Made by a program: the position numbers and the translations under genes. Below the pieces are notes generated by a model. It was not told the origin of the DNA, did no database searches, and saw only the letters and a list, made by a program, of their open reading frames with translations. From Candidatus Chisholmbacteria bacterium (GTDB taxonomy: Bacteria > Patescibacteriota > Microgenomatia > UBA1400 > Chisholmbacteraceae), in the NCBI GenBank assembly GCA_963704905.1, contig CAVPHZ010000002.1, positions 203,011 through 267,010 of the forward strand: DNA of 64,000 nucleotides, written 5' to 3'. Below, one piece after another: positions 26,795-50,945 of this stretch; positions within the stretch are counted from its first letter, which is position 1; each line of letters starts with the position of its first letter.

Positions 26795-26799
26795 ATAAG

Positions 26800-28455: not shown

Positions 28456-28485
28456 GAATGTCAATGAGTGGGAGTATAGCGAAGT

Positions 28486-31655: not shown

Positions 31656-31991
31656 CAACAGATATCGGAAAAAGAAATTGTGCAAGAAGTTTGAAGTCGT
31701 AACTGACTCAGAGCAATTGCAAGCTTAAACCAATGACTGTTTTAATTAAATAAACAACTTGAGAAGTGTAACACGGGGTGATGCTGATTGCAAATACAGT
31801 GATTTATAATTTGCTGGCAGTCTGGGATGAAATGAAATACTATCCAAAATAATTACTAAAATCCCGGTCGAGACATAAAAAGTGGGTGCACAAACGGATG
31901 TTTTTCAAAGCCCCACCCTTTACTCATCAAAAATAGCTGCAACGTCATCTCCAGACGTTGATATACTGGTATGAAAGGATAAACACAAGAT

Positions 31992-32459: not shown

Positions 32460-32674
32460 GACACTCTCAAGAAATTTTCAATCTCGGAAACGTACTAGAA
32501 CAGTAAATCGCTGGCTGGCAGCTTGGGATGAAATAAGGAATAAAGAATCTACAAATTACGTTTCTTTCTCCTAACTATTCCCAAAATTCTAACAGTTGAT
32601 TCTAAATCCAAGAATAACTGTTTTTCCCTAGGATAAAGATCCTAAGGAATTAATGATGCGTAGAAAAACTTAAG

Positions 32675-33259: not shown

Positions 33260-33462
33260 GATATATTTTAGAATTCTTAATTTTCTTTCCTCCCCAAGGA
33301 TATTTTATAATTTCCAACTCATTTGGTTTACCTTATGGATAAACATATATAGTGCCCGTTAACTTCGCTCAGGGCGATTCTCTGCATAGATACATAGTAA
33401 AGATGAATGCTTGACTTTTTTTTGAGCTTAAATCCGTGAGCGAATGTATCGATTTAAATCGG

Positions 33463-33533
33463 CTGCGGGACTTGGACTCGAACCAAGACTGACGGCTTCA
33501 AAGGCCGCTGTCCTACCATTAGACGATCCCGCA
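33463..33533 (-). tRNA. tRNA-Gln (anticodon TTG)
   Basis: Manual fold: U1-A72 acceptor (TGCGGGA/TCCCGCA) typical of bacterial tRNA-Gln, 3-bp D stem, anticodon stem GCGGC/GCCGT with loop CTTTGAA, T arm CTTGG-TTCGAGT-CCAAG. Confidence 0.8.
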
Positions 33534-33578
33534 AAAAAACAACAATGTATATTTTACCAAAAATATTTGTAAGGAATA

Positions 33579-34850
33579 TCAGTTTCTCTGGATTGGTGTT
33601 TCTGTATTGATTGAAACACCATAAGAGCCACTCTGTAATAATTCGATCATTCTTCCTTGGATCTCGTATGCCTGTTTTTTTGATCTACCGATAATAACGT
33701 AGATAAGTTCATTTGATTTAAGAATGTTCTCAGAATTGATAAGAACACCTCGTTTTTCTTTATGGTCATACAATAACGTATCAAGTTGATCGAGAAGTGA
33801 TGAAAATTTAATCGATTTCCCATGAGGAAAGGAGAAGTGACTTCTTGAAATAATGTAGTAATCATCCATAAAATCTTTTCCTAATAACTTATAAACCACT
33901 CGGTATACATCTGTGCCTCCACTATTTCGCGTGTTAGACTCAGAAACATAAATTTGGTTGTTTTTAGAAGCTATCATGTCAATGTCAAAGTGACCACGAT
34001 ATCCTGCGGTACTAAATTTTTCAGCGATAAAATATCCTGTATCGATGATCTTTGTGCTAATTCGATCGTTGATCAAATCGTCATTAATATCTAAGCCGAT
34101 AAATTCTCCTTTTTGAGTCACTTCCATCAAACAATAATAGAGCATATCAATTCGTCCATTTTTTTGAATCTTAAATTCTATACTAGGAAATCCACCCCCG
34201 ATACCGTACTTAATATTGATGAGATCTTCGATCACAATTGGAAAGTTATCCCAATATTTATCGCTGTTGAAATTCCGGAGAATAGCGGCAACACACTCTC
34301 GGTATGTCTGAGGCAGATCGCCATTTCTAAATATCAGAATACCGCTTCCACCGCTTCCCTTATTTGTCTTGATGACAACACCTTTTTGCTTAATGTATTT
34401 GTTGGCAGCAATATTAGCTGCAACTTCTCTTCCGACACATATAATACCTTCTGGCATGATAAAATCAGGTTCCTGCAACCTGCTTTGTTGCGCGAGTTGA
34501 CGGATCCCTGATTTACTACCGAAGAAATTAACTGTCCAAGCACAATCAATCTCAGGTGTTTCAGGCGTGTAAACCTCAAGACCTAACTCAACGAGTGTTT
34601 CTTTGAGCTTATAGAATTCAGCCGAAGCAGAGTAGCTTATTAACGTAATCTTTTTATATAATTTTGCTTTTTCAACCAAAATATTCAACGATTTTGTATC
34701 ACTCAGAAGATCTTCGCAAATGAGATCTGATTTTTTCTCAGGGGTAATAATTTCGGCTGACTTGTACCCGAGCAGTTGTTTGGCATAACTTTGAAATTCA
34801 GGTGAAATTTTCCTAGGACTGATAAATATGAATTCAGGCTCGGTAGCCAT
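33579..34850 (-). CDS. ATP-grasp fold protein (putative carboxylate-amine ligase)
   Basis: Central/C-terminal region with ATP-grasp-like Gly-rich and acidic motifs (SGGSGILIF, ...SESNTRNSGGTD); AT-rich codon usage. ORF-track TTG 34856; first ATG 34850. Confidence 0.4.
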   Translation of the reverse strand: MATEPEFIFISPRKISPEFQSYAKQLLGYKSAEIITPEKKSDLICEDLLSDTKSLNILVEKAKLYKKITLISYSASAEFYKLKETLVELGLEVYTPETPEIDCAWTVNFFGSKSGIRQLAQQSRLQEPDFIMPEGIICVGREVAANIAANKYIKQKGVVIKTNKGSGGSGILIFRNGDLPQTYRECVAAILRNFNSDKYWDNFPIVIEDLINIKYGIGGGFPSIEFKIQKNGRIDMLYYCLMEVTQKGEFIGLDINDDLINDRISTKIIDTGYFIAEKFSTAGYRGHFDIDMIASKNNQIYVSESNTRNSGGTDVYRVVYKLLGKDFMDDYYIISRSHFSFPHGKSIKFSSLLDQLDTLLYDHKEKRGVLINSENILKSNELIYVIIGRSKKQAYEIQGRMIELLQSGSYGVSINTETPIQRN

Positions 34851-35099
34851 GCTCAAAAAAAAGCAATCTGTTGTTTCTTCACAACGAGCGATTTCTTCAA
34901 TCCTCTTTTTCGGAGTAGATAAATAGTTAATATACGACCACTCATCTTCAACGATATTGAAAACATATACTAACAGCTCATTTCGCAGAGGTTCCTTGTC
35001 GTTTTGTTTAAATTGTAGGAGTGCAGAAGTATTTTTCGTTGTAATAAATCCTTTATCTAATAGTATTGATTAACTTCGTAATTCAATAGCTATCATTTG

Positions 35100-35172
<73 letters not shown>

Positions 35173-35261
35173 TTCTTCGCAGTATACCAAACTCAGCTTT
35201 AGGTGTTTCACTGTAAATTTCATGAGAGACTTTGTTTCACTACTTCAATGAAATTTACTAG

Positions 35262-35334
35262 TGCCAGGGAGAGGAGTCGAACCTCTATCTCATGTTTTTC
35301 AGACACGCGCCGTGACCACCTTGGCTACCCTGGC
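35262..35334 (-). tRNA. tRNA-Phe (anticodon GAA), atypical D arm
   Basis: Manual fold: acceptor GCCAGGG/CCCTGGC, anticodon stem CGTGT/ACATG (one G-U) with loop CTGAAAA, T arm AGAGG-TTCGACT-CCTCT. D arm has a short 3-bp stem and long loop. Confidence 0.75.
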
Positions 35335-35418
35335 TATAAATCAATTCCCGATTCAGACTAAACAGTTTTTCTGTATTTGTAAAGTTGTGTTTGTACTCAA
35401 ACTCAATAGCAATTTCGG

Positions 35419-35492
35419 TGGCCGCTGCAGGGATCGAACCTGCGACCTCCCGGATGTAAACCGGACGCTCTAACCAGCTGAGCTAAGCGGCC
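35419..35492 (-). tRNA. tRNA-Val (anticodon TAC)
   Basis: Manual fold: acceptor GGCCGCT/AGCGGCC, D arm GCTC-AGCTGGTTA-GAGC, anticodon loop TTTACAT, T arm GCAGG-TTCGATC-CCTGC. Confidence 0.9.
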
Positions 35493-35534
35493 CCTACCTT
35501 AGTATTTAGACTGTAAGATCTACTGATTTTACAG

Positions 35535-35619
35535 TGCCGAGAAGAGGACTCGAACCTCCACGCCCATAATGGGCACATGCTCCTGAAGCATGCGCGTCTA
35601 CCAATTCCGCCATCTCGGC
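35535..35619 (-). tRNA. tRNA-Leu (anticodon CAG)
   Basis: Manual fold: acceptor GCCGAGA, anticodon stem CATGC/GCATG with loop TTCAGGA, long variable arm, T arm GGAGG-TTCGAGT-CCTCT. Confidence 0.9.
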
Positions 35620-35660
35620 TCTGGTCAGTGTTTACACTGTAAAATGTAAACATTTTACAG

Positions 35661-35744
35661 TGGGCAAGAGAGGACTCGAACCTCCACGCTCGTAAGAGCA
35701 CTACGTCCTCAACGTAGCCTGTCTGCCAATTCCAGCACTTGCCC
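35661..35744 (-). tRNA. tRNA-Leu (anticodon GAG)
   Basis: Manual fold: acceptor GGGCAAG/CTTGCCC, anticodon stem CTACG/CGTAG with loop TTGAGGA, long variable arm, T arm GGAGG-TTCGAGT-CCTCT. Confidence 0.9.
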
Positions 35745-35930
35745 TAATTTTCTGTCAAACCGAAAATTCTTATCAACATTTGATCGTATATGCTGTCAGT
35801 TTTACGGATGTTAGCGAACAGAGGCAAGTCTAAAGCATATACTAAAACTCTCAATTTACCTACTCGCCTGACAGAAATTTATTATATCACGCGGAAATAT
35901 GTACTCCTAGAAATTGAAGAGGGGGAGTGA

Positions 35931-36677
35931 CTAAAAAGTGAGGAGTAATTTTCTAAATAATTTTTTACGCTTCTTCGCATAGTCGGGAAACTTATTTTTC
36001 AGAGCCAAAACGACATGTTCAGCTGCATCTTGAATATTCATATCTGCAGTGTTTATAACCAGATCATAATAGTTGGCATTTGAAATATCTTTGTTAAAAT
36101 ACTGGCTGATAAATTGCTTCCGATGTGTATCAGTGTCCTTAATAACGTGGATAGCCTTATCCCTGGAAATACCCTCATGCTTAACAGCTCTTTCAACGCG
36201 GACTAAATACGGAGCTTGAATTCTCACATGGAGTCCGCTATTGAATGGGGTAACGAAATTTGCTCCACGACCAAGAATTACCACTTCCCCTTTTATAGCT
36301 GCCGAAAGTATTACCGAACTCAGATATCGCATGTACTGGATATCTGAGACATAATCGGGGTTAAACATACTATGTACCATGTCTTCAATAAAGTTTCTCC
36401 CTCGCTCATCAACAGATTGAACAAGCGCCTTACGTTTTCGAGCGCTACTCGCCAAATCGCTAATCAGCTTTTTATTGTAGTAATCAAAACTCAACCATTT
36501 TGAAACTAATTTGGCGACCGGTTTTCCACCGCTACCAGGTTCTCTGGAAATGGTTATAAATGGTTGAGTGAACTCAATTTCTTCGCCATCCAACTGCAAC
36601 GTTTCTGTACGTTTCAGCTCAACTCTAGAAGAACCGCTAAATGCTTTATTGACAAGTTTATCGTACGTACGCGCCAT
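35931..36677 (-). CDS. Cytidylate kinase-like family protein (P-loop NTPase, Cytidylate_kin2-like)
   Basis: ITISREPGSGG P-loop followed by VAKLVSKWLSFDYYNKKLI; overall similarity to the archaeal/bacterial cytidylate-kinase-like family. Confidence 0.55.
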   Translation of the reverse strand: MARTYDKLVNKAFSGSSRVELKRTETLQLDGEEIEFTQPFITISREPGSGGKPVAKLVSKWLSFDYYNKKLISDLASSARKRKALVQSVDERGRNFIEDMVHSMFNPDYVSDIQYMRYLSSVILSAAIKGEVVILGRGANFVTPFNSGLHVRIQAPYLVRVERAVKHEGISRDKAIHVIKDTDTHRKQFISQYFNKDISNANYYDLVINTADMNIQDAAEHVVLALKNKFPDYAKKRKKLFRKLLLTF

Positions 36678-36767
36678 AGTTTGCTAAACCATACACAAAT
36701 TACTACTCAGGGTCAATAAATCACCAATACATCTCATGAAGGGCGTTTTGATATAATCTTTACGCTC

Positions 36768-36841
36768 GCCCCAGTAGCTCAGTGGATTAGAGCATCTGTC
36801 TTCGGAACAGAGGGTCGGGGGTTCGAATCCCTCCTGGGGCA
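36768..36841 (+). tRNA. tRNA-Arg (anticodon TCG)
   Basis: Manual fold: acceptor GCCCCAG/CTGGGGC, D arm GCTC-AGTGGATTA-GAGC, anticodon stem TCTGT/ACAGA with loop CTTCGGA, T arm GGGGG-TTCGAAT-CCCTC. Extended -10 TGATATAAT 11 nt upstream. Confidence 0.9.
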
Positions 36842-36858
36842 CAACCAATGGAAAAATC

Positions 36859-37134
36859 ATGCAAATAGACACTATGAATTATTCACAGTGGTACGTGTAC
36901 ATAGCGCAGTGCTACGATGGTTCTCTCTATACAGGAATAACCACAGACCCAATACGAAGAGAGTTGGAGCATAATACCGATAATGTCTTAGGTGCTAGAT
37001 CCTTAAGATATAAGCGACCAGTGAAGATTGTCTATACGGAGACACATGCTACAAGATCGGATGCTACTTTACGGGAACATGCTATTAAGAGCCGGAATAG
37101 AGGTTATAAATTGAAATTAATTCAGGAGAAATAA
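36859..37134 (+). CDS. GIY-YIG nuclease superfamily protein (UPF0213-like)
   Basis: WYVYIAQCYDGSLYTGITTDPIRRELEHN matches the GIY-YIG UPF0213 pattern (YVYI..C.DGSLYTG.T.D..RR..EHN). Confidence 0.75.
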   Translation: MQIDTMNYSQWYVYIAQCYDGSLYTGITTDPIRRELEHNTDNVLGARSLRYKRPVKIVYTETHATRSDATLREHAIKSRNRGYKLKLIQEK

Positions 37135-37198
37135 CATAGTGAGTATCCTGAACATTAAAGAATTTTAGGTTTACTCAAAATAAAGCTCTGTATTTTAA

Positions 37199-37270
37199 GG
37201 GCCCGTAGCTCAGCGGTAGAGCAGTTGCCTCTTAAGCAATTGGTCGAAGGTTCGAATCCTTCCGGGCTCA
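37199..37270 (+). tRNA. tRNA-Lys (anticodon CTT)
   Basis: Manual fold: acceptor GGGCCCG, D arm GCTC-AGCGGTA-GAGC, anticodon stem GTTGC/GCAAT with loop CTCTTAA, T arm GAAGG-TTCGAAT-CCTTC. Confidence 0.9.
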
Positions 37271-37600
37271 CAAAAAAAGAAATCGGGTTGGGAGTGTGGG
37301 CAGCACTGGCTGCGCTCACCTCCGCAGATAGATCTGCAAAGGCAAAATCCAGATTCGCCGAGAGCCGCCCGTTAAAAAGAATGAAGAAAAACGTAAGTTT
37401 TAAAGAACTTATTTTTAACTTAAATGGCCTAACCGGCGGAACCAGTTAGTAATTATTTACAGCTGTCCGAATAGGTCATTAAAAACAAATACTTTTTTTC
37501 AACTGGTTTCATATTATATATAAACATTTTTACGAAAACAAAACATTATCGATAGAGATGTGAATGTAACAAAAAAAACTATTAAATTAGATTGTAAAAT

Positions 37601-40414: not shown

Positions 40415-41308
40415 ATGACAAAAAAAGTTAAACAGATAACCAAAGACCCTGATGGAACAATTCACATCAAACTGACAATTTCCTGGGAAAAAGTCAAAAC
40501 TGCATACAACAAGGCCTTACTCGATTCAAAAAAAACACTCGAGGTAAAAGGGTTTCGCAAGGGTAAAGCTCCAGACAAAATTGTTGAGGAGCAAGTAGGG
40601 AAACAGTCACTCTATACGCAAGCGTTACAATACATTTTACCTGAAGCATACGCTGAAAAAGTAAAACAGTTAAAACTCAAACCGATTGTCAGTCCCAAGG
40701 TGGAGCCCAACAGCCTTGAAGAAGGTCAAACCTGGGAACTTACCGCAACATTGGCTGAAAAACCATCCATTAAACTTGGCGACTATAAAAAAATTGTGAT
40801 AGGTGCAAAGGCTGCTAGCAAAATCTGGACTCCAGGAAAAGATACCGACTCCCCAAAACAACAAGATGACACCGTACAACAAAAAGAAGCCTCTCTCGAT
40901 GAACGGCTGGCAAAAATCTTTGATGAACTTATTAACGAGGTGAAATTTGACCTACCAAAATTTCTCATCGAAGAACAAGTAAATCGCCAACTTTCTCGTC
41001 TCTTGGAACAAATAGAAAAACTTGGTCTTTCTCTGGAGCAATACCTTATCTCTCTGGGCAAAACTAGCGATCAATTACGAAAAGAATACCACCAAGAAGC
41101 CGAGCGAACGCTGAGACTTGAGCTGATCTTAAATGAAATTGCCAATGATCTGAAAACAACTGTTTTTGAAGAAGAAGTAGATAGACTTATAGATTCAGTC
41201 GGCGATGAGAAGCTGAAGGAAACATTGAAAAGTAACGCTCATGAGCGAGATGCCATCCGGGCCAGTTTACGAAAACGAAAAGTGACCGACGAACTGCTCA
41301 AAATGTAA
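40415..41308 (+). CDS. tig: Trigger factor (short form, apparently lacking the PPIase domain)
   Basis: N-terminal ribosome-binding signature GFRKGKAP and the trigger-factor N/C-domain pattern. ATG at 40415 preceded by AAAGGAG RBS; ORF-track start 40334 is upstream non-ATG. Confidence 0.75.
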   Translation: MTKKVKQITKDPDGTIHIKLTISWEKVKTAYNKALLDSKKTLEVKGFRKGKAPDKIVEEQVGKQSLYTQALQYILPEAYAEKVKQLKLKPIVSPKVEPNSLEEGQTWELTATLAEKPSIKLGDYKKIVIGAKAASKIWTPGKDTDSPKQQDDTVQQKEASLDERLAKIFDELINEVKFDLPKFLIEEQVNRQLSRLLEQIEKLGLSLEQYLISLGKTSDQLRKEYHQEAERTLRLELILNEIANDLKTTVFEEEVDRLIDSVGDEKLKETLKSNAHERDAIRASLRKRKVTDELLKM

Positions 41309-41416: not shown

Positions 41417-42049
41417 ATGAATAACAAGAAAAAACAAAACAACTTCCGTTCAGACAGTTTCTTTGAAGCTTTTCGAGAACTTGGGGGTGGGACTCGTCAG
41501 GCTGCTAAGGATGCTGCCATGGGTATTGGTGGAGATATGATTCGCCAAGTCACCCAAAAGAACTGGACTCCACAGCCACTTTCCGGTGAAATTTCCATGG
41601 GAGAACATCTTGATATCGACATAGAAATACAGAGAAGGGAAAAAGACATCATCAAGAAAGAGCGGTCCCACCTTGAGTATGTAAGAAGAGAAGAACAGCT
41701 TGTGTTTAATAGGAAAGAAGAACAACTAAAAGAACAAATAAAATCCATCCAAGAGGAACTAAAGAAAGAACTCGAAAAACTCGCCGAAGAAGCCGGAGGA
41801 CTAGTTGGAGAACTTGAAATTGCAGTCGAGCAAACAATTGTCAGCCCTGGTACGTATCATCTAAACTTTTTCGATAAAATCCGACAACTCTTTATCTTGC
41901 TCAGAAAACGTGTTCATGAATCTAAAACCTGGATGCACACCGTCAATAGTCGATCCTCACACAGATCATTCTATTGGGGTAGTGTCGGCAAGTCGGGAAC
42001 CAAATTCATGCTCTCTCAAGAGAGATATATGTCTACTCAGGCTGGATAA
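41417..42049 (+). CDS. Hypothetical coiled-coil protein (210 aa)
   Basis: Charged heptad-like region (EEQLKEQIKSIQEELKKELEKLAEE); no recognisable domain. Confidence 0.35.
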   Translation: MNNKKKQNNFRSDSFFEAFRELGGGTRQAAKDAAMGIGGDMIRQVTQKNWTPQPLSGEISMGEHLDIDIEIQRREKDIIKKERSHLEYVRREEQLVFNRKEEQLKEQIKSIQEELKKELEKLAEEAGGLVGELEIAVEQTIVSPGTYHLNFFDKIRQLFILLRKRVHESKTWMHTVNSRSSHRSFYWGSVGKSGTKFMLSQERYMSTQAG

Positions 42050-42082: not shown

Positions 42083-42265
42083 TTGACACATCCATTACAT
42101 ATTTGCTAAATATAACAATTATGAACAAAGTCTCTCAAACCTACATGCTTATTGATCCTATTTTTGTCCTTATTACCAAGGGCAGTTTTGGTTTGGGGGA
42201 AACGTTGTAAATAAAAATTAAAAATAAGCAAAAACACGAAACCTCCAAACCAGGAGGTTTTTTTG
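42083..42265 (+). promoter_or_regulatory. Candidate leader-peptide transcription attenuator. TTGACA-N18-TAAATA promoter, 29-codon leader ORF (42121-42210, MNKVSQTYMLIDPIFVLITKGSFGLGETL), antiterminator strand GGTTTGGGGG, terminator CCTCC-aaacca-GGAGG-U7.
   Basis: Seen directly: -35 TTGACA at 42083-42088; leader ATG at 42121 (near-leaderless); GGTTTGGGGG (42190-42199) is complementary to CCTCCAAACC (42242-42251) with one G-U; CCTCC (42242-46) also pairs with GGAGG (42253-57), followed by TTTTTTT. Confidence 0.45.
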
Positions 42266-42278
42266 TTTCTAAAGGAAT

Positions 42279-43895
42279 ATGAAACAAGAACGCGACATAC
42301 TAATCTATCCAAGTCACGATTTCGAAGTAGGGAATCACAACGTTGTTAGTCAAGACTTAAAAAGTGGTAAAAGTGTTGGACTGTTGGATGGAGCTTCTCC
42401 GAAAACACAATTGGATGTAGGAGGTCACTATGACTTCCGAAGCATAGATCAGTTGATGAACCAAGAAGCCAAGGGGTACGTACTTACTACAGATGCGGAT
42501 CGGTTGTTCGCCCAAGTTCTCTATCGAGGAATACTCGCAAATCGAAGCTTAACAGCTGTTGAAAGATTGCAAGATATTCCTACAAAGAAAGGGGAAGTTG
42601 GATTGTATATTCCATATGTGAACTTTTATCCACCCGAATTTCCTAACACTGCAACTTGGAAGAGATATGGACTTCCGACAGAAGTTGCTCAACGTGCACA
42701 AAATAAAGCTGACTTCCACAATTGGTTAGTCAAAGAAGGATTTGCAGAACATACTCCTAATCATATCGTTAGCAATGTTGAATCTATCCCAAACCTCGGT
42801 CAAAACATGATCAGACAAATTGATCAGATGTACTCTCAAGCCGCTATGCAAAGTGAGTATCCTTTAGGGCTAATGATCAGAGCAGCTAGAAGCGACGGAA
42901 ATTATGGTGCAGCAAAAGTGGTTCAGCTTGTAGAGGGTGAAACTATTATTGAAAATCATGAAGGTCTAGATATTGTAAGACGGTTTAAGGCTGGAGATAT
43001 TCTTATGTACCCAGATGGAAAGAAAAGGGGTATCAAAAAATTCTCGGAATGGCCAAGGGCTCTGGAAGCAGCTTCAAAGCATATTGAGGGTGCTATGGAT
43101 ATGAACGTCGACAGCAGAGTCGTGATGTCAAGACTCTTAGACTTGGAAGCATCCCCTGGAATAAGTGCCGTAATTATAAAAGGTATAGCTCACACATTTA
43201 GATGGAATGGTCAATGGCAAGAAGATGGAGAAAGCGCTTGTACTGGAACGATGAGCTATGATCTCGCACATGATGGAAAAATCGAGGCTGATTACTTTGA
43301 GCAAAGTCAAGAGGTATATGTAAGAGTTCTAAGTAAAATGCTGGTAGGTCAAGAAAATCTCGAAGATATTTATGCCAAGAACAACATGGATCTCATGATA
43401 CCAGGAAGGCTAGAGAGAAAGCTATGGCAAAGAGCTCAAAGAGACCCTTCCCTGTTTAAATATCTTGGAACTGTTGGAAGAAATAATCTGGAATATATGC
43501 CGAGAATCTATTCGTCCCAGGATGTACTTATTGCTGAAGATAATCCAAGAGACACGAACTGGACTCTGGCTGTGCAAGCTGTTTTACAAGCTCTACAACG
43601 TCAGTTTACCCTGGAAAATATGCTAGCAATTGCGAATGGACTAGATGGTCAGATTATAGCTAGAGATGTATGGCCTTTACCTGAAGCCCTAAGGGGAGAA
43701 GATATGGATAAGGTTCGTGATACTCTACTCGAATTTCATGAGAGAGTTAAGAGAAGAGGAGATGGTTTCATTTTACGAATGCCCGATTTACCAAAAGCAG
43801 GAGCTATAGCCTATACAACTGATGTGTCAAGAACTCCGTACGGTTTGTTTGATGAGGCCTACGGAGCACTAAATTCAAATAATCTAGGACTATGA
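42279..43895 (+). CDS. Large uncharacterised protein A (538 aa), downstream of attenuator 1
   Basis: ATG with AAAGGAA RBS; no confidently recognisable domain. Weak ATP-grasp-like hints (IRAARSDGNYGAAKVV; LIAEDNPRD) that I cannot confirm. Confidence 0.5.
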   Translation: MKQERDILIYPSHDFEVGNHNVVSQDLKSGKSVGLLDGASPKTQLDVGGHYDFRSIDQLMNQEAKGYVLTTDADRLFAQVLYRGILANRSLTAVERLQDIPTKKGEVGLYIPYVNFYPPEFPNTATWKRYGLPTEVAQRAQNKADFHNWLVKEGFAEHTPNHIVSNVESIPNLGQNMIRQIDQMYSQAAMQSEYPLGLMIRAARSDGNYGAAKVVQLVEGETIIENHEGLDIVRRFKAGDILMYPDGKKRGIKKFSEWPRALEAASKHIEGAMDMNVDSRVVMSRLLDLEASPGISAVIIKGIAHTFRWNGQWQEDGESACTGTMSYDLAHDGKIEADYFEQSQEVYVRVLSKMLVGQENLEDIYAKNNMDLMIPGRLERKLWQRAQRDPSLFKYLGTVGRNNLEYMPRIYSSQDVLIAEDNPRDTNWTLAVQAVLQALQRQFTLENMLAIANGLDGQIIARDVWPLPEALRGEDMDKVRDTLLEFHERVKRRGDGFILRMPDLPKAGAIAYTTDVSRTPYGLFDEAYGALNSNNLGL

Positions 43896-44626
43896 AAAAA
43901 CCAACTCTCCTTCTCCAATTCAGAACCGACAGATCAGAGATCCATGAGCAAACCTGCATTATGAAAAAAGGTGGATACCTGCCAGATGAACTCAAAATTA
44001 TTAACGTATTAAAAAATGGAAATACTCTTCCTAAGCCAGAAGCTCTTGATAACTATCAAGCAGTAATTACCGGCGCTTCAGGACAATACAACACTACAGA
44101 TTGGCCTCCAGATATCCGTAGGAAAGTTGAGAAATTCCTTCCATTGCTAAGAGAAATCATTAAAAGAGATAAGCCACTCCTAGCTATCTGTTTCGGACAC
44201 CAAATAATTGCCAACCTCCTCGAGGGAAAAGTAGAGAATGATGAGGATCAAGCTGAAACAGGCACTATTTCTGTCTCGTTAACCAAGGAGGGAAGAAAAT
44301 CGGATCTATTCGAAAATATTCCAGATAATTTCCATGTTGTTCTTGGTCATAAGGACTCTGTAACGAAACTGCCAAAACAGGCAATGCTATTGGCAAAATC
44401 TAAAACGTGCCGAGTAGAGGCGTACAAAATTAAAAACAATATCTATTCAGTCCAGTTTCACCCAGAACTCGATTTAGATGGTCTTATTTGGCGTTTAAAA
44501 CTATATCCTGAGTACCTAAAAGGGAAAACTTTTAAACAAGTTCGCTCTGAATATAACGAAATACCATACGCATCCAAAATCATAGAGAATTTTAAAAAAA
44601 TAACTTTCAAGAACGGTTTTAAATAG
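43892..44626 (+). CDS. Class I glutamine amidotransferase-like protein
   Basis: Catalytic triad context LLAICFGHQIIANLL (nucleophile elbow G-x-C-x-G) and VQFHPE (His-Glu); start overlaps protein A stop by 4 nt. Confidence 0.75.
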   Translation: MKKPTLLLQFRTDRSEIHEQTCIMKKGGYLPDELKIINVLKNGNTLPKPEALDNYQAVITGASGQYNTTDWPPDIRRKVEKFLPLLREIIKRDKPLLAICFGHQIIANLLEGKVENDEDQAETGTISVSLTKEGRKSDLFENIPDNFHVVLGHKDSVTKLPKQAMLLAKSKTCRVEAYKIKNNIYSVQFHPELDLDGLIWRLKLYPEYLKGKTFKQVRSEYNEIPYASKIIENFKKITFKNGFK

Positions 44627-44667
44627 TAATTAATAATCAATAATGTAACTTGATAAACCTAACAAAA

Positions 44668-44798
44668 ATGAATCTGATTACAAGAATCACCACATCTTTT
44701 GAATTTTTTAGCTTCTGCAAAGGAGGTTGTGTTCTTGCGGAAAAGTAACTACTAATAGATAGCAAGAAATATACAACCTCCATTCCGGAGGTTTTTTT
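44668..44798 (+). promoter_or_regulatory. Candidate Phe-responsive leader-peptide attenuator. 26-codon leader ORF (44668-44747, MNLITRITTSFEFFSFCKGGCVLAEK), antiterminator GGAGGTTGT:ACAACCTCC, terminator AACCTCC-attcc-GGAGGTT-U7 containing the GGAGG upstream of the ATG.
   Basis: Seen directly: GGAGGTTGT (44722-30) is perfectly complementary to ACAACCTCC (44773-81); CCTCC (44777-81) alternatively pairs with GGAGG (44787-91), followed by T7 and the ATG at 44799. Leader has 4 Phe codons within 6 codons (TTT GAA TTT TTT AGC TTC). Confidence 0.5.
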
Positions 44799-46442
44799 AT
44801 GACTAAACAAGAAAAAGTAACGCATAAAAACATCGGCAGAGGAGAAATATTAAATCTTCATGGCCAACTGCTTCCGACAGGCAACCGAGAACCAGATATT
44901 CATCAGGGAGAGGGTGCTATTTTGATGGATCTGAGCGGAAACGTAAAACATGAACTGTGGCGCCTAAGAGCTGGATCAATTTCTGAGTATAATCCTGCAA
45001 TTGACGGAGACTTGATACCTTGGTGTCTTAGTCCAAATGTCAGTATACCACCGTTGCTACTTTCTCCCGATCAAATATTTATTGGCACCGAAGATGAAGA
45101 TCACTTAATAACAAGTGACCCTGAAACATCAGGGGACATGAACAATCTTAAACTTGAAAATATAAACGGACCCGAAACAGAGATAGATCCCGAGCTACTC
45201 ATCAACGCCATAGAAATTAAGCGTATCGGAGGAATGCAGGGTTTCAATGCAATTCTAAGGCACATCCAATCTTCACGGGCACGACTGCTAGATACTGCCA
45301 TTCAATCTGGACAGCACGCTTTGTTCCTGGGTGCACAGCCTACAGCATTGCTGCCGGACATTCACCCACACCCCTACTTGCAAAAAGCAGGTCTAACGAC
45401 TGCAAAGCAATATCTCCAACTAGATCCCGAAAGCCACACGCACCAAACGTACTTCTTCCCTTTAATTGGACAAGACTGGGCAACTGAAACGGATCAGCAG
45501 TATATGCGTGGCTTAAGCCAATTTAGCGGATTAGGTTTTCAAACTAATATAAACATTCCTGTGGATAATGAAAACTTAGCCGTAGAGGTAGGGAATAAAT
45601 TGGCTTTTTCCGACATCTCAATTATTTTAGCAGGCATCTTAAACTCTTCACCAGTCTTAAACGGTGTGCTTTCTGCACGCTCTGACACACGACTCATCGC
45701 TAAACGCGTATTAGCTTCCGCAAATCCACAAGCCGAATTTTATCCGCTTAAAGACGTATTGGAGAGGGTCAATGAGGAGGTAGTTTCAGGAAAAGTTCCT
45801 ACAATTGCCAGAGCCTTATGCCTGGGTGTTGATGGTGGTTCAGTGTTTCACGGCATGGGAATGAGGATTCGAGGAGATAGGGGACAGGGTAATTCAACCT
45901 GGGAAGATATGCTACCATCTACTGGAGACGATGAAATCCAGGCTGCCTATGCATACATTAAAGCCTGCCAAACCAGTTATCTGATCTACTGCCAATCACA
46001 TGCTATCGAACCGGATAGAGATGAATTCAACATCCAACCTTCAGACTACAGAGAATCATTGATCAACGATATCTCCATGTATGGACCAAAACCATACACC
46101 CGCAGGATATTCTCTCATCTTAATTTCTTAGAAAACTTTTTTGATCAAAATGCAATTCCCATTGAAGGATTCGAAGATGCTAAATTGGTATTCAGAAGAG
46201 CTCTACAAACCCCAACAAATTACTGTATCGAAAACTATTATCAAAGAGGGCATTATGACCACAAGATTGGTTTACTTACGGATCATCTCAGAGCCACCGT
46301 CAATCAGGAGATACAAAGTATTGGTGAAAATCCCAATCATTGGATCGACAAATACAATCCACAAATTGCATTAGCCGTTCATTCTGCAATGATGAGATAC
46401 GCCGTCTCGTTGGCGAGATACTACTCTCAACCACCTGTTTAG
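44799..46442 (+). CDS. Large uncharacterised protein B (547 aa), downstream of attenuator 2
   Basis: ATG 8 nt after a GGAGG that lies in the terminator hairpin; no recognisable domain by eye. Confidence 0.5.
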   Translation: MTKQEKVTHKNIGRGEILNLHGQLLPTGNREPDIHQGEGAILMDLSGNVKHELWRLRAGSISEYNPAIDGDLIPWCLSPNVSIPPLLLSPDQIFIGTEDEDHLITSDPETSGDMNNLKLENINGPETEIDPELLINAIEIKRIGGMQGFNAILRHIQSSRARLLDTAIQSGQHALFLGAQPTALLPDIHPHPYLQKAGLTTAKQYLQLDPESHTHQTYFFPLIGQDWATETDQQYMRGLSQFSGLGFQTNINIPVDNENLAVEVGNKLAFSDISIILAGILNSSPVLNGVLSARSDTRLIAKRVLASANPQAEFYPLKDVLERVNEEVVSGKVPTIARALCLGVDGGSVFHGMGMRIRGDRGQGNSTWEDMLPSTGDDEIQAAYAYIKACQTSYLIYCQSHAIEPDRDEFNIQPSDYRESLINDISMYGPKPYTRRIFSHLNFLENFFDQNAIPIEGFEDAKLVFRRALQTPTNYCIENYYQRGHYDHKIGLLTDHLRATVNQEIQSIGENPNHWIDKYNPQIALAVHSAMMRYAVSLARYYSQPPV

Positions 46443-46573
46443 CGTGAGATTTATTGCAATATGATTTATGATTATGAAAAAGATCTTTTGGCTGAATCGT
46501 TGTGTTTCGGTATAGATAACTTAACTTAGATGGATTGTCCCATTGACGAATTGAATCCTGATCCTTGAAACTC

Positions 46574-47986
46574 TTATAACCAACCCTTATAAATAATGTC
46601 TAACTTCTCCCTAGCGATTTTCCCTCCATCAAGGTCAACAGCTGTCAGTAGGAATGGATATGAAGCTTCAGTTCGACCAGACATCTCACTTTCAAATCGC
46701 TTAATCAAAGGCGCAAACCGCCTAGCATCGAGTGTGTACTTACCAACCAGACTACCATTCTCACGCACCACCGTTATGGAGCCGATTGGTGCCAGTCTCG
46801 CAGCATTTCCAACGTAGGCGAGTGCTAAAGAATTCTTGTTGACCGAACGTAAACTAAAAGACTTTTCTTCAACCCGAATATTCATACGTTGGGCAAGATG
46901 TCTGACAATAAACCACATCGTTGATGAAGGAAGTTGATTTACCTCAAGTGGGGGATAATACAACGTTTCTCCGTCATATGCCAGTACCCCCTCTCCTGGG
47001 CCATCCGCGATGACCACATTCTCGTACTGAGCATCAAATACACCAGGTTCCTGAAAGTTCACATATGATGCGATCCCACCATTTTTATCTACCGTGTAAG
47101 GTCCGAAGTAACCTGCCTCATCAATACCCTTGATATTACGCGCAAGTTTTCCCACTCGGCCGGCATCTCCATAGTTTGACGCATTTTTTCCCAAAATTGG
47201 AAACAAACGTTGGTCCGGAAAAAAAGCGATACGCAAACCCGATCCACCGTAAACTCTCTTTGGATGATTGAAATAATAAGGCCAATGTAAAGCCATTGCA
47301 GCCACATCAATCTGGTGATGTTCTTTTAGACTCACTCCGACACCGCCAGGTCCTGGTCGCGCTGATGGTCTAAGATAGGCTCTCGAAATTTCTCTTTTGG
47401 AGTTGGTGAGTATTCCCTCCCCCAAAACTGCAACCAGATCCCGAATTGCAAGATCAAATGTCTCGGGCAAACAGGGTAGCGAAAAAAACCTACTTTTCAG
47501 GGATATCTCAAATCGTTTCATCCGCAGAGGGTGCAAAACCAAATGTGCTCCCACAATTCTCCTGCCAGAGACTTCCGGCTCTACACTACTTCCTTCAAAA
47601 ACGCCAGAACCGTAATCTCCCGCGTGACTGGGTAATATCGTGGTTCGGTTGAGAGGATGCCATGAAGGCACGATGACTAGCTTGTTTTCATGGTAGGAGT
47701 AGACAAGGACATACGTGTTTCCTTTGCTTCCCTCTTCAAAAATATCCTTGCGTAGTCTGATCGATTCAGCGTCCGGTTCTTTATAAAAGTCAAGAATTCT
47801 GGTAGAAGGGAGATAATGAGCTATTCTATCTTCGATTCGTAAAGGAAATCCGAGTTGGATTGTTAGCTCATTAGTTGAAAATGATCGTTCAACTCTATCA
47901 AATTCCTCAAAAAGTGCTGACTTACGAAAATTCTTTGCCATTAAATTCATAGTAGCATTTCTATCATCAGATGTATGTGTCATCAA
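46574..47986 (-). CDS. Class IV (fold type IV) PLP aminotransferase, branched-chain aminotransferase-like, with ~100-aa N-terminal extension
   Basis: Aligns with IlvE motifs: SHAGDYGSGVFEG (cf. SHALHYGTSVFEG), HPLRMKRFEISLKS (cf. HREHMQRLHDSAKI), AYLRPSARPG (cf. AYIRPLIFVG), K-x-x-NY region (KNASNYGDAG), GNAARLAPI (cf. SGTAAEITPV). Confidence 0.6.
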   Translation of the reverse strand: MMTHTSDDRNATMNLMAKNFRKSALFEEFDRVERSFSTNELTIQLGFPLRIEDRIAHYLPSTRILDFYKEPDAESIRLRKDIFEEGSKGNTYVLVYSYHENKLVIVPSWHPLNRTTILPSHAGDYGSGVFEGSSVEPEVSGRRIVGAHLVLHPLRMKRFEISLKSRFFSLPCLPETFDLAIRDLVAVLGEGILTNSKREISRAYLRPSARPGPGGVGVSLKEHHQIDVAAMALHWPYYFNHPKRVYGGSGLRIAFFPDQRLFPILGKNASNYGDAGRVGKLARNIKGIDEAGYFGPYTVDKNGGIASYVNFQEPGVFDAQYENVVIADGPGEGVLAYDGETLYYPPLEVNQLPSSTMWFIVRHLAQRMNIRVEEKSFSLRSVNKNSLALAYVGNAARLAPIGSITVVRENGSLVGKYTLDARRFAPLIKRFESEMSGRTEASYPFLLTAVDLDGGKIAREKLDIIYKGWL

Positions 47987-48418: not shown

Positions 48419-48811
48419 ATGCCGGATGAACAAGGCGAACAATCCCAGATAAAAAGAGAGGGAAAAACAATCTACGAAGCAGGATACGGGGCCATCTTCG
48501 CGCGAAATTTTGTCGCTGGTTTTAGCAGAGCACTAGGTTCAATTTTTGTGTATCTGATACTTGGAGGATTACTCTATGCGCTGGTAACAACCTATATCAT
48601 CCCTCAAGTCCAACGTATACTTCCAGAATCATTCCCTTTCTTCGGGCCATCGCTTCTGCAACAACTCCAAACCCAACCATTATCTGAGGAAAGCTTGCAA
48701 AACAACCCAACATTTACAGTCTCACCGGAACAGGTAAATAACGCATTGGACATTATTGAACAAGCTCAGCATGAACAGCAAAAAACACCAACGCCGACAC
48801 CTTCAGAGTAA
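48419..48811 (+). CDS. Hypothetical membrane protein (130 aa, one TM)
   Basis: TM helix IFVYLILGGLLYALVTTYII; Gln-rich C-terminus. Confidence 0.4.
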   Translation: MPDEQGEQSQIKREGKTIYEAGYGAIFARNFVAGFSRALGSIFVYLILGGLLYALVTTYIIPQVQRILPESFPFFGPSLLQQLQTQPLSEESLQNNPTFTVSPEQVNNALDIIEQAQHEQQKTPTPTPSE

Positions 48812-48872
48812 AATGTCCATGCAATTTCACAATCGTAAACTGAAGAATACGATTCCCATCTTCTAGTATTCG

Positions 48873-49038
48873 TTGACAGCCACTGCTATACTATTTAGTA
48901 GAAACAATCTTTGCCTTGATCCAGCCTCACCAATTGGGAAGCAAAGCGTCAACCCGCGAACGGGGAGAATAAAGACCAAATCAGGATGGAACCGTCTTGA
49001 GCGCAGCGAAAGACTCCTGAATAAGGGGTCTTTTTTTT
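48873..49038 (+). promoter_or_regulatory. Candidate T-box leader upstream of thrS (promoter TTGACA 48873-78; antiterminator with UGGAACC bulge; terminator 49011-49038)
   Basis: Seen directly: AAATCAGGATGGAACCGTC matches T-box consensus AAUUAGGGUGGNACCGCG. Helix A1 CAGGA/TCCTG, 7-nt bulge TGGAACC (48987-93), helix A2 GTCTT/AAGAC, overlapping terminator AGACTCC-tgaataa-GGGGTCT followed by T8. Confidence 0.55.
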
Positions 49039-49094
49039 GTATTCGTTATAAATTTTAGATAATATGCTTCCCGCCGAAGTGTCTGATCTCGAAC

Positions 49095-50945
49095 ATGGCA
49101 GGATGTGCAATTAGTCGAAACTCGCGAAACGAAGAAGGGTATCCGAATATAAATATGTCAATGCAAAACAGCCATACAGATAAAGCTGACAAATTCTTGT
49201 CAATTCGTCATAGTGCAGAACACGTCCTCAGCCAAGCTATGCTGAAACTGTTTCCTGGCATCAAAATGGCCATGGGACCAGCTACAGAGGATGGATTTTA
49301 TTTCGACTTTGATCCAACCGCAAAGGGTGGGGGAGAACACAAAATCAGTGAGGATAATTTTCCCCAAATCGAAGCAGAGATGAAAACAATAATGTTAAAA
49401 GATCTGCCAATCAAAAAAGAGGAAATTTCAATCAAACAAGCACGTGAATTATTTAAAGGAAATCCATACAAACAAGAATGGCTTGATGAAATAGAATCCA
49501 AGGGGGAATCAGCAACTGTCTACTGGACGGGAGATGAGTTTGTCGATCTCTGTGCAGGGCCGCATGTAAAATCGACTGGGAGAATTACCGCATTTAAGCT
49601 GCTGAGTGTTGCCGGTGCATACTGGCGAGGAAGTGATAAAAATAAAATGCTCACCCGCATCTATGGTACGGCATTTGATAAACAGACTGATCTTGACCAA
49701 TATCTTATTCTTCTTGAACAAGCTAAGCAGAGAGACCATAGAAAACTTGGCAAAGACTTAGATCTTTTCACCTTCTCAGACCTCGTGGGAAAGGGGCTAC
49801 CGCTCTTCACTGAAAAAGGCGCTACCATCTGGAGGGAGATCGAGCGTTTCGTCGTTGATGAAGAAATCAAGCGTGGCTATAAACACGTTAAAACACCCAG
49901 CATTGCCAAAACCGATCTCTACAGAAAATCAGGACATTATCCCTACTACGCGGATACGATGTATCCTCCTATGACCATTGATGATGATGAACTCATCTTA
50001 AGGCCCATGACCTGTCCACACCACTTTGCGCTGTTCATGAGTAAACCTCGCAGCTATAAAGAACTACCGATCCGCTTTGCCGAAATGGCCTCACTTTATC
50101 GATACGAAAAATCTGGTGAACTCACTGGTCTCCTCCGAGTTCGGGAGTTTGTCCTGGCAGACTCTCACAATTTTGTTCGCAAAAATCAGGCTGCCAAAGA
50201 AGTTGGCTTCGTCCTCGACCTGATTGAATATATTGCCAAAGTGTTGAAACTCAAGATAGAAAAAGACTTCGTGTATCGATTATCCTTGGGAGATAGAAAC
50301 AACCTAAAAAAGTACTACGATGCACCAGAGCATTGGGAATTTGCAGAAAATCTCTTAAGAAGAGTACTCAATCAGAGAAAATCTCCATACTACGAAGCCC
50401 CAGATGAAGCAGCCTTTTATGGTCCGAAAATCGATGTACAAATGAAAAATGTGCTTGAAAAAGAAGAAACAGCCTTTACCGTTCAATACGATTTCTGCTT
50501 ACCAGCCAGATTTAATCTTTCCTACATCAATGAAAAAGGAGAAGAAGAACAACCGATAGTCATTCATCGATCATCCGTTGGAGCGATGGAGCGATCAATC
50601 GGTTTTCTCATCGAACATTATGCTGGAGCATTTCCGATTTGGCTTTCTCCCACACAAGTGAAAGTAATCCCTATATCAGATAAACACCTAGCATATGCAG
50701 AAAAGGTCACAAGCGCATTACGGCATGGAGATGTTCGGATCGAGATTGACGACCGCTCGCTCAGCATGCAAAAACGCATTAGAGAAGCAGAGCTACAAAA
50801 AATTCCTTACATGGCAATAGTTGGCGATCGAGAGCAAAAATCAAATACGGTCTCTGTCAGAATGCGAGGGGAAAAAGATCAAGGCAGCATGAAACTAAAC
50901 ATCTTCAAAGACAGAGTCATCCAAGAAATAGCAGAAAAATATTAA
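49095..50945 (+). CDS. thrS: Threonyl-tRNA synthetase (lacking N-terminal TGS domain)
   Basis: Second additional/editing-domain HxxxH region (RHSAEHVLSQAML), class II aaRS motifs, C-terminal anticodon-binding domain; conserved position before infC. Confidence 0.9.
   Translation: MAGCAISRNSRNEEGYPNINMSMQNSHTDKADKFLSIRHSAEHVLSQAMLKLFPGIKMAMGPATEDGFYFDFDPTAKGGGEHKISEDNFPQIEAEMKTIMLKDLPIKKEEISIKQARELFKGNPYKQEWLDEIESKGESATVYWTGDEFVDLCAGPHVKSTGRITAFKLLSVAGAYWRGSDKNKMLTRIYGTAFDKQTDLDQYLILLEQAKQRDHRKLGKDLDLFTFSDLVGKGLPLFTEKGATIWREIERFVVDEEIKRGYKHVKTPSIAKTDLYRKSGHYPYYADTMYPPMTIDDDELILRPMTCPHHFALFMSKPRSYKELPIRFAEMASLYRYEKSGELTGLLRVREFVLADSHNFVRKNQAAKEVGFVLDLIEYIAKVLKLKIEKDFVYRLSLGDRNNLKKYYDAPEHWEFAENLLRRVLNQRKSPYYEAPDEAAFYGPKIDVQMKNVLEKEETAFTVQYDFCLPARFNLSYINEKGEEEQPIVIHRSSVGAMERSIGFLIEHYAGAFPIWLSPTQVKVIPISDKHLAYAEKVTSALRHGDVRIEIDDRSLSMQKRIREAELQKIPYMAIVGDREQKSNTVSVRMRGEKDQGSMKLNIFKDRVIQEIAEKY

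Follow-up and report, generated by a model that had tools for sequence, protein, structure and literature searches.

As a rule, a leader-peptide attenuator governs a gene whose product increases the supply or the charging of the amino acid that the leader senses. In the described Escherichia coli systems (trpL, pheL/pheA, pheM/pheST, ilvL and leuL) a short open reading frame (ORF) carrying regulatory codons is followed by an intrinsic terminator, and a mutually exclusive antiterminator has its 5' strand at the end of the ORF, the whole being built from four RNA segments (regions 1 to 4). Two elements with this layout are found in the 64,000-nucleotide (nt) stretch of DNA analysed here (the window; Candidatus Chisholmbacteria bacterium, contig CAVPHZ010000002.1, positions 203,011 to 267,010), where they precede two genes, A and B, that encode large orphan proteins. 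They are probably independent ribosome-mediated transcription attenuators of the trp/phe/ilv type, controlling orphan ligases within a variable genomic island. No paper linking the candidate phyla radiation (CPR)/Patescibacteria with leader-peptide attenuation was found in the literature searched. A second group of described systems pairs a ligase with an amidohydrolase: in PuuA/PuuD (gamma-glutamylation) and LysX/LysK (carrier-protein lysine), a glutamine-synthetase-fold or ATP-grasp ligase stands beside a class I glutamine amidotransferase (GATase)/C26 enzyme or an M20 deacylase.

Anatomy of the two attenuators

The features of the two elements and of the genes behind them, all on the + strand, are as follows.

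42083 to 42112, +: putative sigma-70 promoter of leader 1 (TTGACA at 42083-42088, 18 nt, TAAATA at 42107-42112), read from the sequence
42121 to 42210, +: leader ORF 1, 29 codons, MNKVSQTYMLIDPIFVLITKGSFGLGETL
42123 to 42142, +: attenuator 1, region 1, predicted to pair with region 2 and present in the minimum free energy (MFE) fold
42189 to 42206, +: attenuator 1, region 2, GGTTTGGGGG, in the final leader codons, able to pair with region 1 or region 3
42238 to 42264, +: attenuator 1, regions 3 and 4, intrinsic terminator GAAACCTCC-AAACCA-GGAGGTTTT with a U-run (terminator scan with hairpin 42238-42261, fold and motif count)
42279 to 43895, +: gene A, an ORF of 538 amino acids
44630 to 44657, +: possible weak promoter of leader 2 (TTAATA, 16 nt, GATAAA), suggested by the sequence
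44668 to 44748, +: leader ORF 2, 26 codons, MNLITRITTSFEFFSFCKGGCVLAEK
44721 to 44733, +: attenuator 2, region 2, AGGAGGTTGTGTT, codons 18-22, antiterminator pairing with region 3
44775 to 44798, +: attenuator 2, regions 3 and 4, terminator AACCTCC-ATTCC-GGAGGTT with a U-run (hairpin 44775-44793 in the terminator scan)
44799 to 46442, +: gene B, an ORF of 547 amino acids

A sequence-only reading of the window had placed four ORFs and two leader ORF/terminator elements here, and all of them were found where it had put them. The motif CCTCC-N3-9-GGAGGTTTT occurs in the 64 kb only at the two leaders, with 0.01 occurrences expected. Both leader RNAs fold better than 200 of 200 shuffles (z = -3.6 for leader 1 and -4.0 for leader 2). 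The duplex of regions 2 and 3 (2:3), the antiterminator, reaches -17.7 kcal/mol in attenuator 1 and -17.9 kcal/mol in attenuator 2, with 0 of 500 shuffles equal or better in either case, and the complete leader 2 adopts it as its MFE structure. The competing duplex of regions 1 and 2 (1:2) in attenuator 1 has a predicted energy of -16.5 kcal/mol (10 of 500 shuffles equal or better).

Since the predicted -10 box of leader 1 ends 8 nt 5' of the leader ATG, and no Shine-Dalgarno sequence lies 5' of either leader ORF in the window, the leader ORFs are probably translated from leaderless or near-leaderless mRNA. Leader 2 may also be transcribed by read-through from the operon of A and its GATase. 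The GGAGG arm of attenuator 2 lies 7 nt from the ATG of gene B, so that this arm would double as the Shine-Dalgarno site of B.

No Rfam family reached its gathering threshold on any leader, and there was no riboswitch or T-box match. The Phe_leader model (RF01859) gave a sub-threshold match on leader 1 (42127-42267; 35.5 bits against a gathering score of 55, E = 0.0038) which spans the whole model, and no match on leader 2. This match therefore sits on the leader of the Ile/Leu/Val type and not on that of the Phe type, and is attributable to the shared hairpin layout rather than to the codons.

Conservation and co-variation in related loci

The comparison set comprised seven further leaders on related metagenomic contigs (given handles from L001 to L057). 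The downstream genes are homologs of A, of B, or of C, a 590-amino-acid relative of B.

L001, upstream of A: MNQYLLNTIMINVLFMGVSGAGGNS
L005, upstream of C: MNQCLLSTIISIVLFEGVQGVGGNL
L010, upstream of A: MNNLSRDAKHMSSLINIMFVLFIED
L005, upstream of B: MNQFNTFTFFFFNAFSGEVKV
L012, upstream of B: MNLKNTSILFFFFNLIEGEGVL
L013, upstream of B: MKTHASLFSKFFFSLAKGRYGCLT
L057, upstream of B: MNKKTNRILFNFFFFHLKKGGWFLI

Every A, B or C homolog of this lineage (on L001, L005, L010, L012, L013 and L057) has its own short ORF and terminator directly 5', and a hairpin with a U-run stands between leader ORF and gene in the window pair and in all related loci. Homologs of A on Anaerolineae/Chloroflexota-type contigs are without a leader/terminator element. 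On all six contigs of the lineage a perfect TTGACA box is present, with a -10 box 8-15 nt before the leader ATG. The leaders all start with ATG, which is part of ATGAAY in seven of eight, 8-15 nt from a near-consensus -10 box; in all nine the frame stays open for 21-29 codons and closes at region 2 or just ahead of it. Region 2 itself is a GGGAGG-like segment in the last 5-8 leader codons or just after the stop, complementary to the CCUCC arm of the terminator.

Because the direction in which the helices extend varies between loci, they cannot be aligned by column, and pairing was therefore assessed by shuffle tests at each locus. These tests, for 2:3 and for 1:2, covered eight leaders: the two of the window and those of L001 (A), L005 (C and B), L010 (A), L012 (B) and L013 (B). 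For the 2:3 duplex, 0, 0, 4, 4, 0, 6, 15 and 0 of 500 dinucleotide shuffles were equal or better. In its flanks the 2:3 helix varies in sequence from locus to locus, and complementarity is kept in each. Moreover, the L010 leader has the CCTCCC/GGGAGG core replaced by CCTCTC/GAGAGG, with matching changes in regions 1 and 2, such that all four segments co-vary. The 1:2 pairing is clear in window leader 1 and in the B leaders of L005 and L013 and borderline in the L001 leader (range 3-28 of 500 shuffles), and pairing of this type does appear in full folds. The sequence-only reading assigned to both large genes a leader-peptide attenuator of their own, and this is thus borne out at the level of ORF, terminator, 2:3 antiterminator, and conservation and co-variation in relatives.

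Leader type also follows gene family. A Phe run, defined as at least three Phe in four residues, is present in five of five B-family leaders and in none of four A/C leaders (Fisher p = 0.008), and Phe makes up 21% of B-leader residues as against 3.5% in the window proteins. The Phe-rich leader, which in the window stands before the 547-amino-acid gene, accordingly belongs to one of five independent loci in which a Phe-type leader precedes this family. Apart from the Phe run, B-type leaders have nothing in common. A/C-type leaders have 2-3 Ile and 3-4 Leu codons in common, mostly between regions 1 and 2. The A leader of L001 and the C leader of L005 are nearly identical peptides standing before non-homologous ligases (ATP-grasp A and GCS2-like C), which suggests that it is ligation as such that the cell requires.

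The same RNA design elsewhere in metagenomes

A metagenome scan with the pattern of regions 2, 3 and 4 (GGGAGG, 15-45 nt, CCTCCC, 3-6 nt, GGGAGGTTTTT) matched more than 120 stretches, of which 80 loci were examined. A short ORF ending at region 2 was present in 66-67 of the 80, and many of these ORFs carry amino-acid runs that fit the downstream gene, as classified by the Pfam match of its product. Among the matches listed, many come from 0.1-um-filtered groundwater samples and several lie on contigs of 0.7-1.0 Mb. Examples of leader run and downstream product are the following.

FFF: chorismate mutase-prephenate dehydratase (PheA)
CCC: PALP enzyme (CysK-like)
SSS: SerA-SerB fusion
KKTTKTT: amino-acid kinase
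FSFSFYYYFF: DAHP synthase
TTTTT: class II tRNA synthetase
NWYYG: Asp/Glu-family racemases
SYYWH, HHVWY, MEMM: class I/II aminotransferases

The matching runs indicate that the elements of the window belong to a widely used attenuator design, which would also explain the sub-threshold Phe_leader match. The scan further suggests that this design controls salvage-type enzymes (racemases and aminotransferases) besides biosynthetic operons. Among the individual loci, Trp/Tyr-rich leaders stand before racemases, aromatic- or Met-rich leaders before aminotransferases and TTTTT before an aminoacyl-tRNA synthetase (L083 193-973, L054, L046 6079-7217, L080, L030 and L072 997-2512). Attenuator-like leaders (e.g. 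YYY, MMM) are also seen before proteins without a Pfam match (L043 6837-8286, L065 8675-9827, L038, L100 and L026), which would add to the orphan genes marked with an amino acid.

Two orphan ligase families

The two large proteins were described in the sequence-only reading as having no recognisable domain. At the level of sequence search this stands, as neither A nor B has a significant Pfam, NCBIfam or PDB sequence match; however, structural comparison places A in the ATP-grasp superfamily, and profile-profile comparison places B near GCS2/YbdK.

No curated ATP-grasp model matched A. Its best structural matches are PGM1 (3wvq), the pheganomycin peptide ligase, and BesA (8yi6), the L-propargylglycine--L-glutamate ligase, together with a Streptomyces ATP-grasp peptide ligase (8ynd); BacD and RizA appear lower in the list. 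With its top matches A shares only 12-13% sequence identity. An E-x-N-x-R motif (E420, N422 and R424, in AEDNPRDTNWT) is invariant in 16 homologs, and by analogy E420 and N422 would form the E-x-N motif that binds Mg-ATP. By structure, A is classed as an ATP-grasp carboxylate-amine (amino-acid/peptide) ligase with a PGM1/BesA-like fold, from an undescribed orphan family. It differs from PGM1, BesA and 8ynd in being about 80-120 residues longer and in its context, which is an attenuator-controlled island and not an actinomycete biosynthetic cluster. The family is rare, with 15 other clusters among 5.8 billion proteins, and a profile scan of GTDB genomes with the A alignment returned only two contigs from Anaerolineae metagenome-assembled genomes, the window's own genome not being among the matches.

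The B family is rarer still in the same collection, with three other clusters. When 1.84 billion representatives were searched exhaustively by profile, one further full-length B and four distant relatives came to light, giving five full-length members in total. A homolog search with the B/C alignment recovered only the four already known members, and a metagenome scan with the B alignment found nothing. An AlphaFold2 model of B, built on a four-sequence alignment, was unusable (predicted local distance difference test, pLDDT, of 42). Across B, the protein P0022, C and the four distant relatives, the invariant residues are G96-x-E98-x-E100, E132, E139, R338, H351, R356 and T367-x-E369. The distant relatives and the consensus give weak colinear matches to GCS2/YbdK models (E = 0.005-0.25), below curated thresholds. 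For profile-profile comparison, a GCS2 profile of nine members was built from YbdK, whose sequence was checked against PDB 1r8g, and eight plasmid-borne genes, six of them annotated as carboxylate-amine or glutamate-cysteine ligase and two (L020 and L021) being unannotated tblastn matches. The hhalign results were as follows.

B/C superfamily versus GCS2: probability 97.9%, E = 5.5e-13, 252 columns
C-group versus GCS2: 97.3%, E = 2e-11
B alone versus GCS2: 70%, E = 4e-5
B versus C-group: 99.7%, E = 9e-26
Controls: A versus GCS2 0.5%; reversed B/C versus GCS2 0.2%

Against the single YbdK sequence, B/C gave no signal, the same as the control. Searches of the B/C profile against PDB sequences returned spurious matches only, such as interferon, and were discarded. 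The matches of B/C to GCS2 and of B to the C-group together indicate that B is a very divergent glutamine-synthetase-fold carboxylate-amine ligase, so that on profile evidence it is assigned, as an orphan family, to the GCS2/YbdK type. Compared with YbdK/GCS2 (PF04107; E. coli YbdK 1r8g), its core motifs are colinear (GxExE, ExxxxxxE, SSPxxxG...R, H...R...TxE). However, B has about 170 residues more, carries long additions at both termini, falls below every curated threshold, and is linked to the family transitively, through the C-group. At the position of the HxH motif, B proper reads QTNIN, with His replaced by Asn, whereas the Glu and Arg residues are invariant.

The variable island and its gene content

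The remaining genes of the locus and its borders are listed here.

41417 to 42049, +: DUF5660 gene, conserved left border of the island (Pfam PF18904, precomputed on an identical 210-amino-acid product)
43892 to 44626, +: class I GATase/peptidase C26-like gene, an ORF of 244 amino acids
46574 to 47986, -: fold-type IV aminotransferase gene, resembling branched-chain aminotransferases (BCAT-like) and convergent with gene B, an ORF of 470 amino acids
48046 to 48121, +: tRNA-Val(GAC) gene, right border of the island

The island is bounded by tig-DUF5660 on the left and by tRNA-Val and then thrS-infC on the right. Synteny from tig-DUF5660 to thrS-infC is also found in L001 and in L005 to L007, and the nearest homologs of A and B on related metagenomic contigs occupy the same position between tig-DUF5660 and tRNA-Val/thrS-infC. 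A tRNA gene ends the island in all three versions (the window, L001 at 8810-8883 and L005 at 8265-8338); the border tRNAs of L001 and L005 read as tRNA-Val(GAC) from their sequences. L005 additionally has broken tRNA copies after gene B (tRNA region 7939-8575) and an IS200/IS605-type Y1 transposase at the opposite end of the island. The tRNA at the island end in three versions, together with the transposase and tRNA fragments of L005, fits a hot spot for gene exchange, and suggests that the variable island is a tRNA-linked one. By exact-sequence look-up, A, B, the GATase, Tig, DUF5660, ThrRS and IF3 are singleton clusters at 90% identity. There is no rRNA within the window. The length of the source contig (508,777 bp), the DUF5660 gene and, among the matches of the metagenome scan, the groundwater origin of many and the 0.7-1.0 Mb contigs of several would fit a small-genome, CPR-like organism, as the sequence-only reading supposed, but are no more than suggestive of it.

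The island versions hold the following genes.

Window: leader, A, GATase
L001: leader, A, ArgE/DapE-type M20, GNAT, NSAR/OSBS-subfamily enolase, class I/II aminotransferase, 78-amino-acid protein
L005: leader, C, M20, 77-amino-acid protein; then a second leader and B
L057: leader, B, M20
L010: M20 dipeptidase, then leader and A

The four genes A, GATase, B and aminotransferase had been put forward as one conserved unit. This does not hold among the related contigs compared, since the GATase and the class IV aminotransferase are present only in the island version of the window. What recurs across the window and related islands is leader, ligase and amidohydrolase, and a ligase-M20 pairing is seen with all three ligase families (L001, L005 and L057). 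The L001 operon, which lies behind a leader of the Ile/Leu/Val type, holds a complete GNAT/NSAR/M20 set for conversion of D- to L-amino acids, its enolase scoring 299.5 bits against TIGR01928 (cutoff 200.65). None of the three is present in the ORF list or among the Pfam matches of the window's island. No exporter, immunity or further tailoring genes were seen in the islands.

The sequence-only reading was right to call the 244-amino-acid protein a class I glutamine amidotransferase: it scores above the gathering threshold for PF00117 (E = 1.4e-22, 80.8 bits versus 22.8), also matches PF07722 (Peptidase_C26; 1.3e-11), and has the triad residues Cys100, His190 and Glu192. Its best NCBIfam match is to the uncharacterised PRK07567 type (2e-44, below the model cutoff). 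The start of its ORF overlaps the end of gene A by 4 nt, by which overlap it is predicted to be translationally coupled to A.

The 470-amino-acid protein matches TIGR01122 (ilvE) at 3.5e-9 (36 bits versus a cutoff of 245) and PDB 1a3g at 2.4e-6, while PF01063 (Aminotran_4) scores 24.7 bits, below its gathering score of 28.5. The catalytic Lys is conserved (K267, ILGKNASNY versus TAAKAGGNY in IlvE), and the IlvE residue that binds the ring nitrogen of pyridoxal phosphate, Glu193, has an Asp as its counterpart here. As the IlvE alignment begins at residue 119, the N-terminal extension is real, at about 95 residues. These data agree with the earlier description of a class IV aminotransferase with a long N-terminal extension, and the protein is best classed, from its sequence, as a distant BCAT-like enzyme of fold type IV and not as an IlvE equivalog. 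There is no leader ORF or terminator in the 60 nt upstream of its gene. Its link to the module is only plausible, given that it has no attenuator and is not conserved.

Elsewhere in the window, at 1856-6276, an AMP-forming acyl-CoA synthetase adjoins a 2-oxoacid:ferredoxin oxidoreductase (POR family). By reductive carboxylation this pair could supply the BCAT-like aminotransferase with branched-chain or aromatic 2-oxoacids. An oligopeptide-binding protein (SBP_bac_5) is encoded at 18273-19637, and 13 of the 15 tRNA genes of the window lie within about 10 kb (26719-37271).

Several features near the island are recorded in their own right. A 77-78-amino-acid protein (MDPKYQELEMEILEKYGAREPGQQVWQEMAKNPA...) closes the ligase-M20 operon in L001 (8506-8742) and L005 (5954-6187), is not present in the window and has no family match. 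A Pup-like or LysW-like role for it was considered and dropped, as its C-terminus is not conserved and there is no conserved acidic C-terminus. The trigger factor (40415-41308) is short, with 297 residues as called, and lacks the PPIase domain, matching Pfam only in its N- and C-terminal domains; the same goes for those of L001 and L005. Upstream of thrS, a 284-nt non-coding stretch (48811-49095) contains a strong terminator-like hairpin (49008-49034) followed by T8, and a motif, GATGGAACCG, common to the equivalent regions of L001 and L005. It has no Rfam match, even at E = 1; it might regulate thrS or encode a small RNA.

A model for regulation and function

From the anatomy of the elements we infer ribosome stalling and transcription read-through. 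Translation of the short leader ORF would take place on an mRNA whose 5' untranslated region is very short or missing. With tRNAs fully charged, the ribosome would reach the stop codon and cover the GGGAGG-like region 2 in the final codons, whereupon the CCUCC/GGAGG terminator would form, transcription would stop and the downstream Shine-Dalgarno sequence would be hidden. A ribosome stalled upstream at hungry codons would instead leave region 2 free to pair with the CCUCC arm, allowing read-through and exposing the ribosome-binding site. The hungry codons would be those of the Phe run in leader 2 and of the Ile/Leu/Val-rich stretch in leader 1. In this way leader 1 would switch on A, as an ATP-grasp amide ligase, with the coupled GATase, and leader 2 would switch on B, of the GCS2/YbdK type.

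The regulatory interpretation is well supported by the comparison of loci. An amino-acid-starvation-responsive module, as first proposed, is the natural reading given the attenuators and the Phe leader in all five B loci, although it does not extend to a conserved four-gene unit. For the biochemical role, the best guess, offered tentatively, is amino-acid salvage through an N-acyl or gamma-glutamyl intermediate. The ligase and an amidohydrolase (an M20 deacylase or a GATase/C26 enzyme) would make and then cleave an N-acyl or gamma-glutamyl amino-acid intermediate. Whenever an aminoacyl-tRNA became scarce, L-amino acids that the cell can use would in this way be recovered, D- or N-acyl forms being one possible source. 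Salvage is favoured because attenuators are known to raise the supply of the amino acid they sense, and it is supported by the GNAT/NSAR/M20 set of L001, the recurring ligase-M20 pairs and the near-identical leader before unrelated ligases.

A broader and more doubtful proposal is that A and B/C are the founding members of a new class of enzymes for amino-acid homeostasis, in which ligases of two interchangeable, unrelated folds work with M20 or GATase partners, are switched per amino acid by attenuators, and give Phe and branched-chain amino acids by an undescribed route to a bacterium without normal biosynthesis. Deracemisation or de-protection via an N-acyl or gamma-glutamyl intermediate is a possible route.

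Several observations weigh against this combination of attenuation and salvage. In the restricted duplex test, the 1:2 pairing is like that of shuffles in window leader 2 (318 of 500 equal or better), L005 (C), L010 (A) and L012 (B). The Phe excess against dinucleotide-preserving leader shuffles gives p = 0.27, 0.006, 0.55 and 0.11, a moderate Fisher combination of about 0.02, and a U-rich region 1 would yield Phe codons in any reading frame. For the A/C-type leaders, the excess of Ile/Leu/Val does not reach significance (p = 0.22, 0.44, 0.04 and 0.41; Fisher combination about 0.11). Leader 1, which had been called rich in branched-chain residues, does contain such codons (9 Ile/Leu/Val of 29 residues), but without significant enrichment over composition-matched shuffles (p = 0.22), and its Ile/Leu/Val specificity is for this reason tentative. 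Neither the GATase nor the class IV aminotransferase is a conserved part of the island, and B stands alone behind its Phe leader in four loci. With Asn in place of the His of the HxH metal motif, B proper may have a different activity or none. Finally, a ligase uses up ATP as well as amino acids, and it is not evident how this would relieve starvation; a ligase with a deacylase makes a futile cycle unless there is a step between them; a racemase is found only in L001.

The main rival to salvage keeps the regulation as described and has the ligases make a starvation-induced peptide-like product (for example a dipeptide antimetabolite, a signalling molecule or a gamma-glutamyl conjugate), which would act on a host or neighbour, or store or export nitrogen, the adjacent amidohydrolase serving for maturation or self-protection. 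The structural match of A to secondary-metabolite peptide ligases (PGM1, BesA and 8ynd) speaks for such a product, as do the consumption of amino acids by ligases and the very rare, patchy occurrence of both families in a tRNA-adjacent variable island (with a transposase in L005), which is typical of accessory functions. It is nevertheless unlikely: attenuators normally serve supply or charging, as do those of the positive controls of the scan, the L001 operon carries the complete D-to-L set, and the islands show none of the exporter, immunity or tailoring genes mentioned above.

Much less probable are translation-independent RNA switches, that is, protein- or ligand-controlled terminator/antiterminator pairs or hairpins sequestering the Shine-Dalgarno sequence, with the short ORFs incidental. 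The weakness of the Phe and Ile/Leu/Val enrichments after base-composition control, the lack of Shine-Dalgarno sequences before the leader ORFs and the inconstant 1:2 pairing would suit these switches. They would, however, leave unexplained why nine loci have 21-29-codon frames ending at region 2, with ATG (ATGAAY in seven of eight) near a -10 box, and why the scan found such ORFs in 66-67 of 80 loci, many with runs fitting the downstream pathway; the Rfam searches for riboswitches and T-boxes were likewise negative.

Least credible is the proposal that the short ORFs are precursors of a pathway resembling that of ribosomally synthesised and post-translationally modified peptides, with the hairpin as a leaky terminator setting the ratio of precursor to enzyme: PGM1-type ATP-grasp ligases act on ribosomal peptides, PGM1 itself performing its ligation on a peptide made by ribosomes, A has a PGM1-type fold match, and A/C-type leaders share a hydrophobic core and a Gly-rich tail (MNQYLLNTIMINVLFMGVSGAGGNS, MNQCLLSTIISIVLFEGVQGVGGNL), yet a precursor has no need of the last-codon pairing with the 5' arm of the terminator, which is significant in eight of eight leaders and co-varies in L010, B-type leaders lack a common sequence beyond the Phe run, the same peptide family precedes non-homologous ligases, the conserved 'VLF' codons overlap an internal RNA hairpin, and elsewhere this RNA design stands before ordinary biosynthetic genes.

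Comparison with known systems

An attenuator reports the purpose of the gene behind it, which is switched on when one particular aminoacyl-tRNA runs short. The attenuators of the window thereby put a testable label on two orphan families, as Phe-linked and Ile/Leu/Val-linked ATP-dependent ligation, and Phe- and Ile/Leu/Val-coded switches on rare ligases point to an undescribed response to amino-acid shortage. If the same design also controls salvage genes, attenuators could serve as a general annotation tool for amino-acid genes in uncultivated bacteria.

Among pathways, there is a likeness to GNAT/NSAR/M20 D-to-L conversion, all three members of which stand in one operon behind a leader of the Ile/Leu/Val type in the L001 island. 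The window's island differs in having none of the three, and ligase A and the aminotransferase are extras relative to that pathway. The pairs of ligase and amidohydrolase in the islands can be likened, from general knowledge, to PuuA/PuuD or LysX/LysK. Unlike in the Puu pathway, no oxidase or dehydrogenase steps were found in the islands and, unlike in the LysX/LysK system, no LysW-like carrier was found in them.

Among regulators, leader 2 resembles pheL in its Phe run. Unlike the E. coli attenuators, the leaders of the window precede orphan ATP-dependent ligases and not biosynthetic enzymes or tRNA synthetases; the 3' arm of the window terminator appears to double as the Shine-Dalgarno site of the gene, and the leader mRNA appears to be leaderless. 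The locus is in this sense a case of a known mechanism, attenuation, acting on a new kind of target, the orphan ligases.

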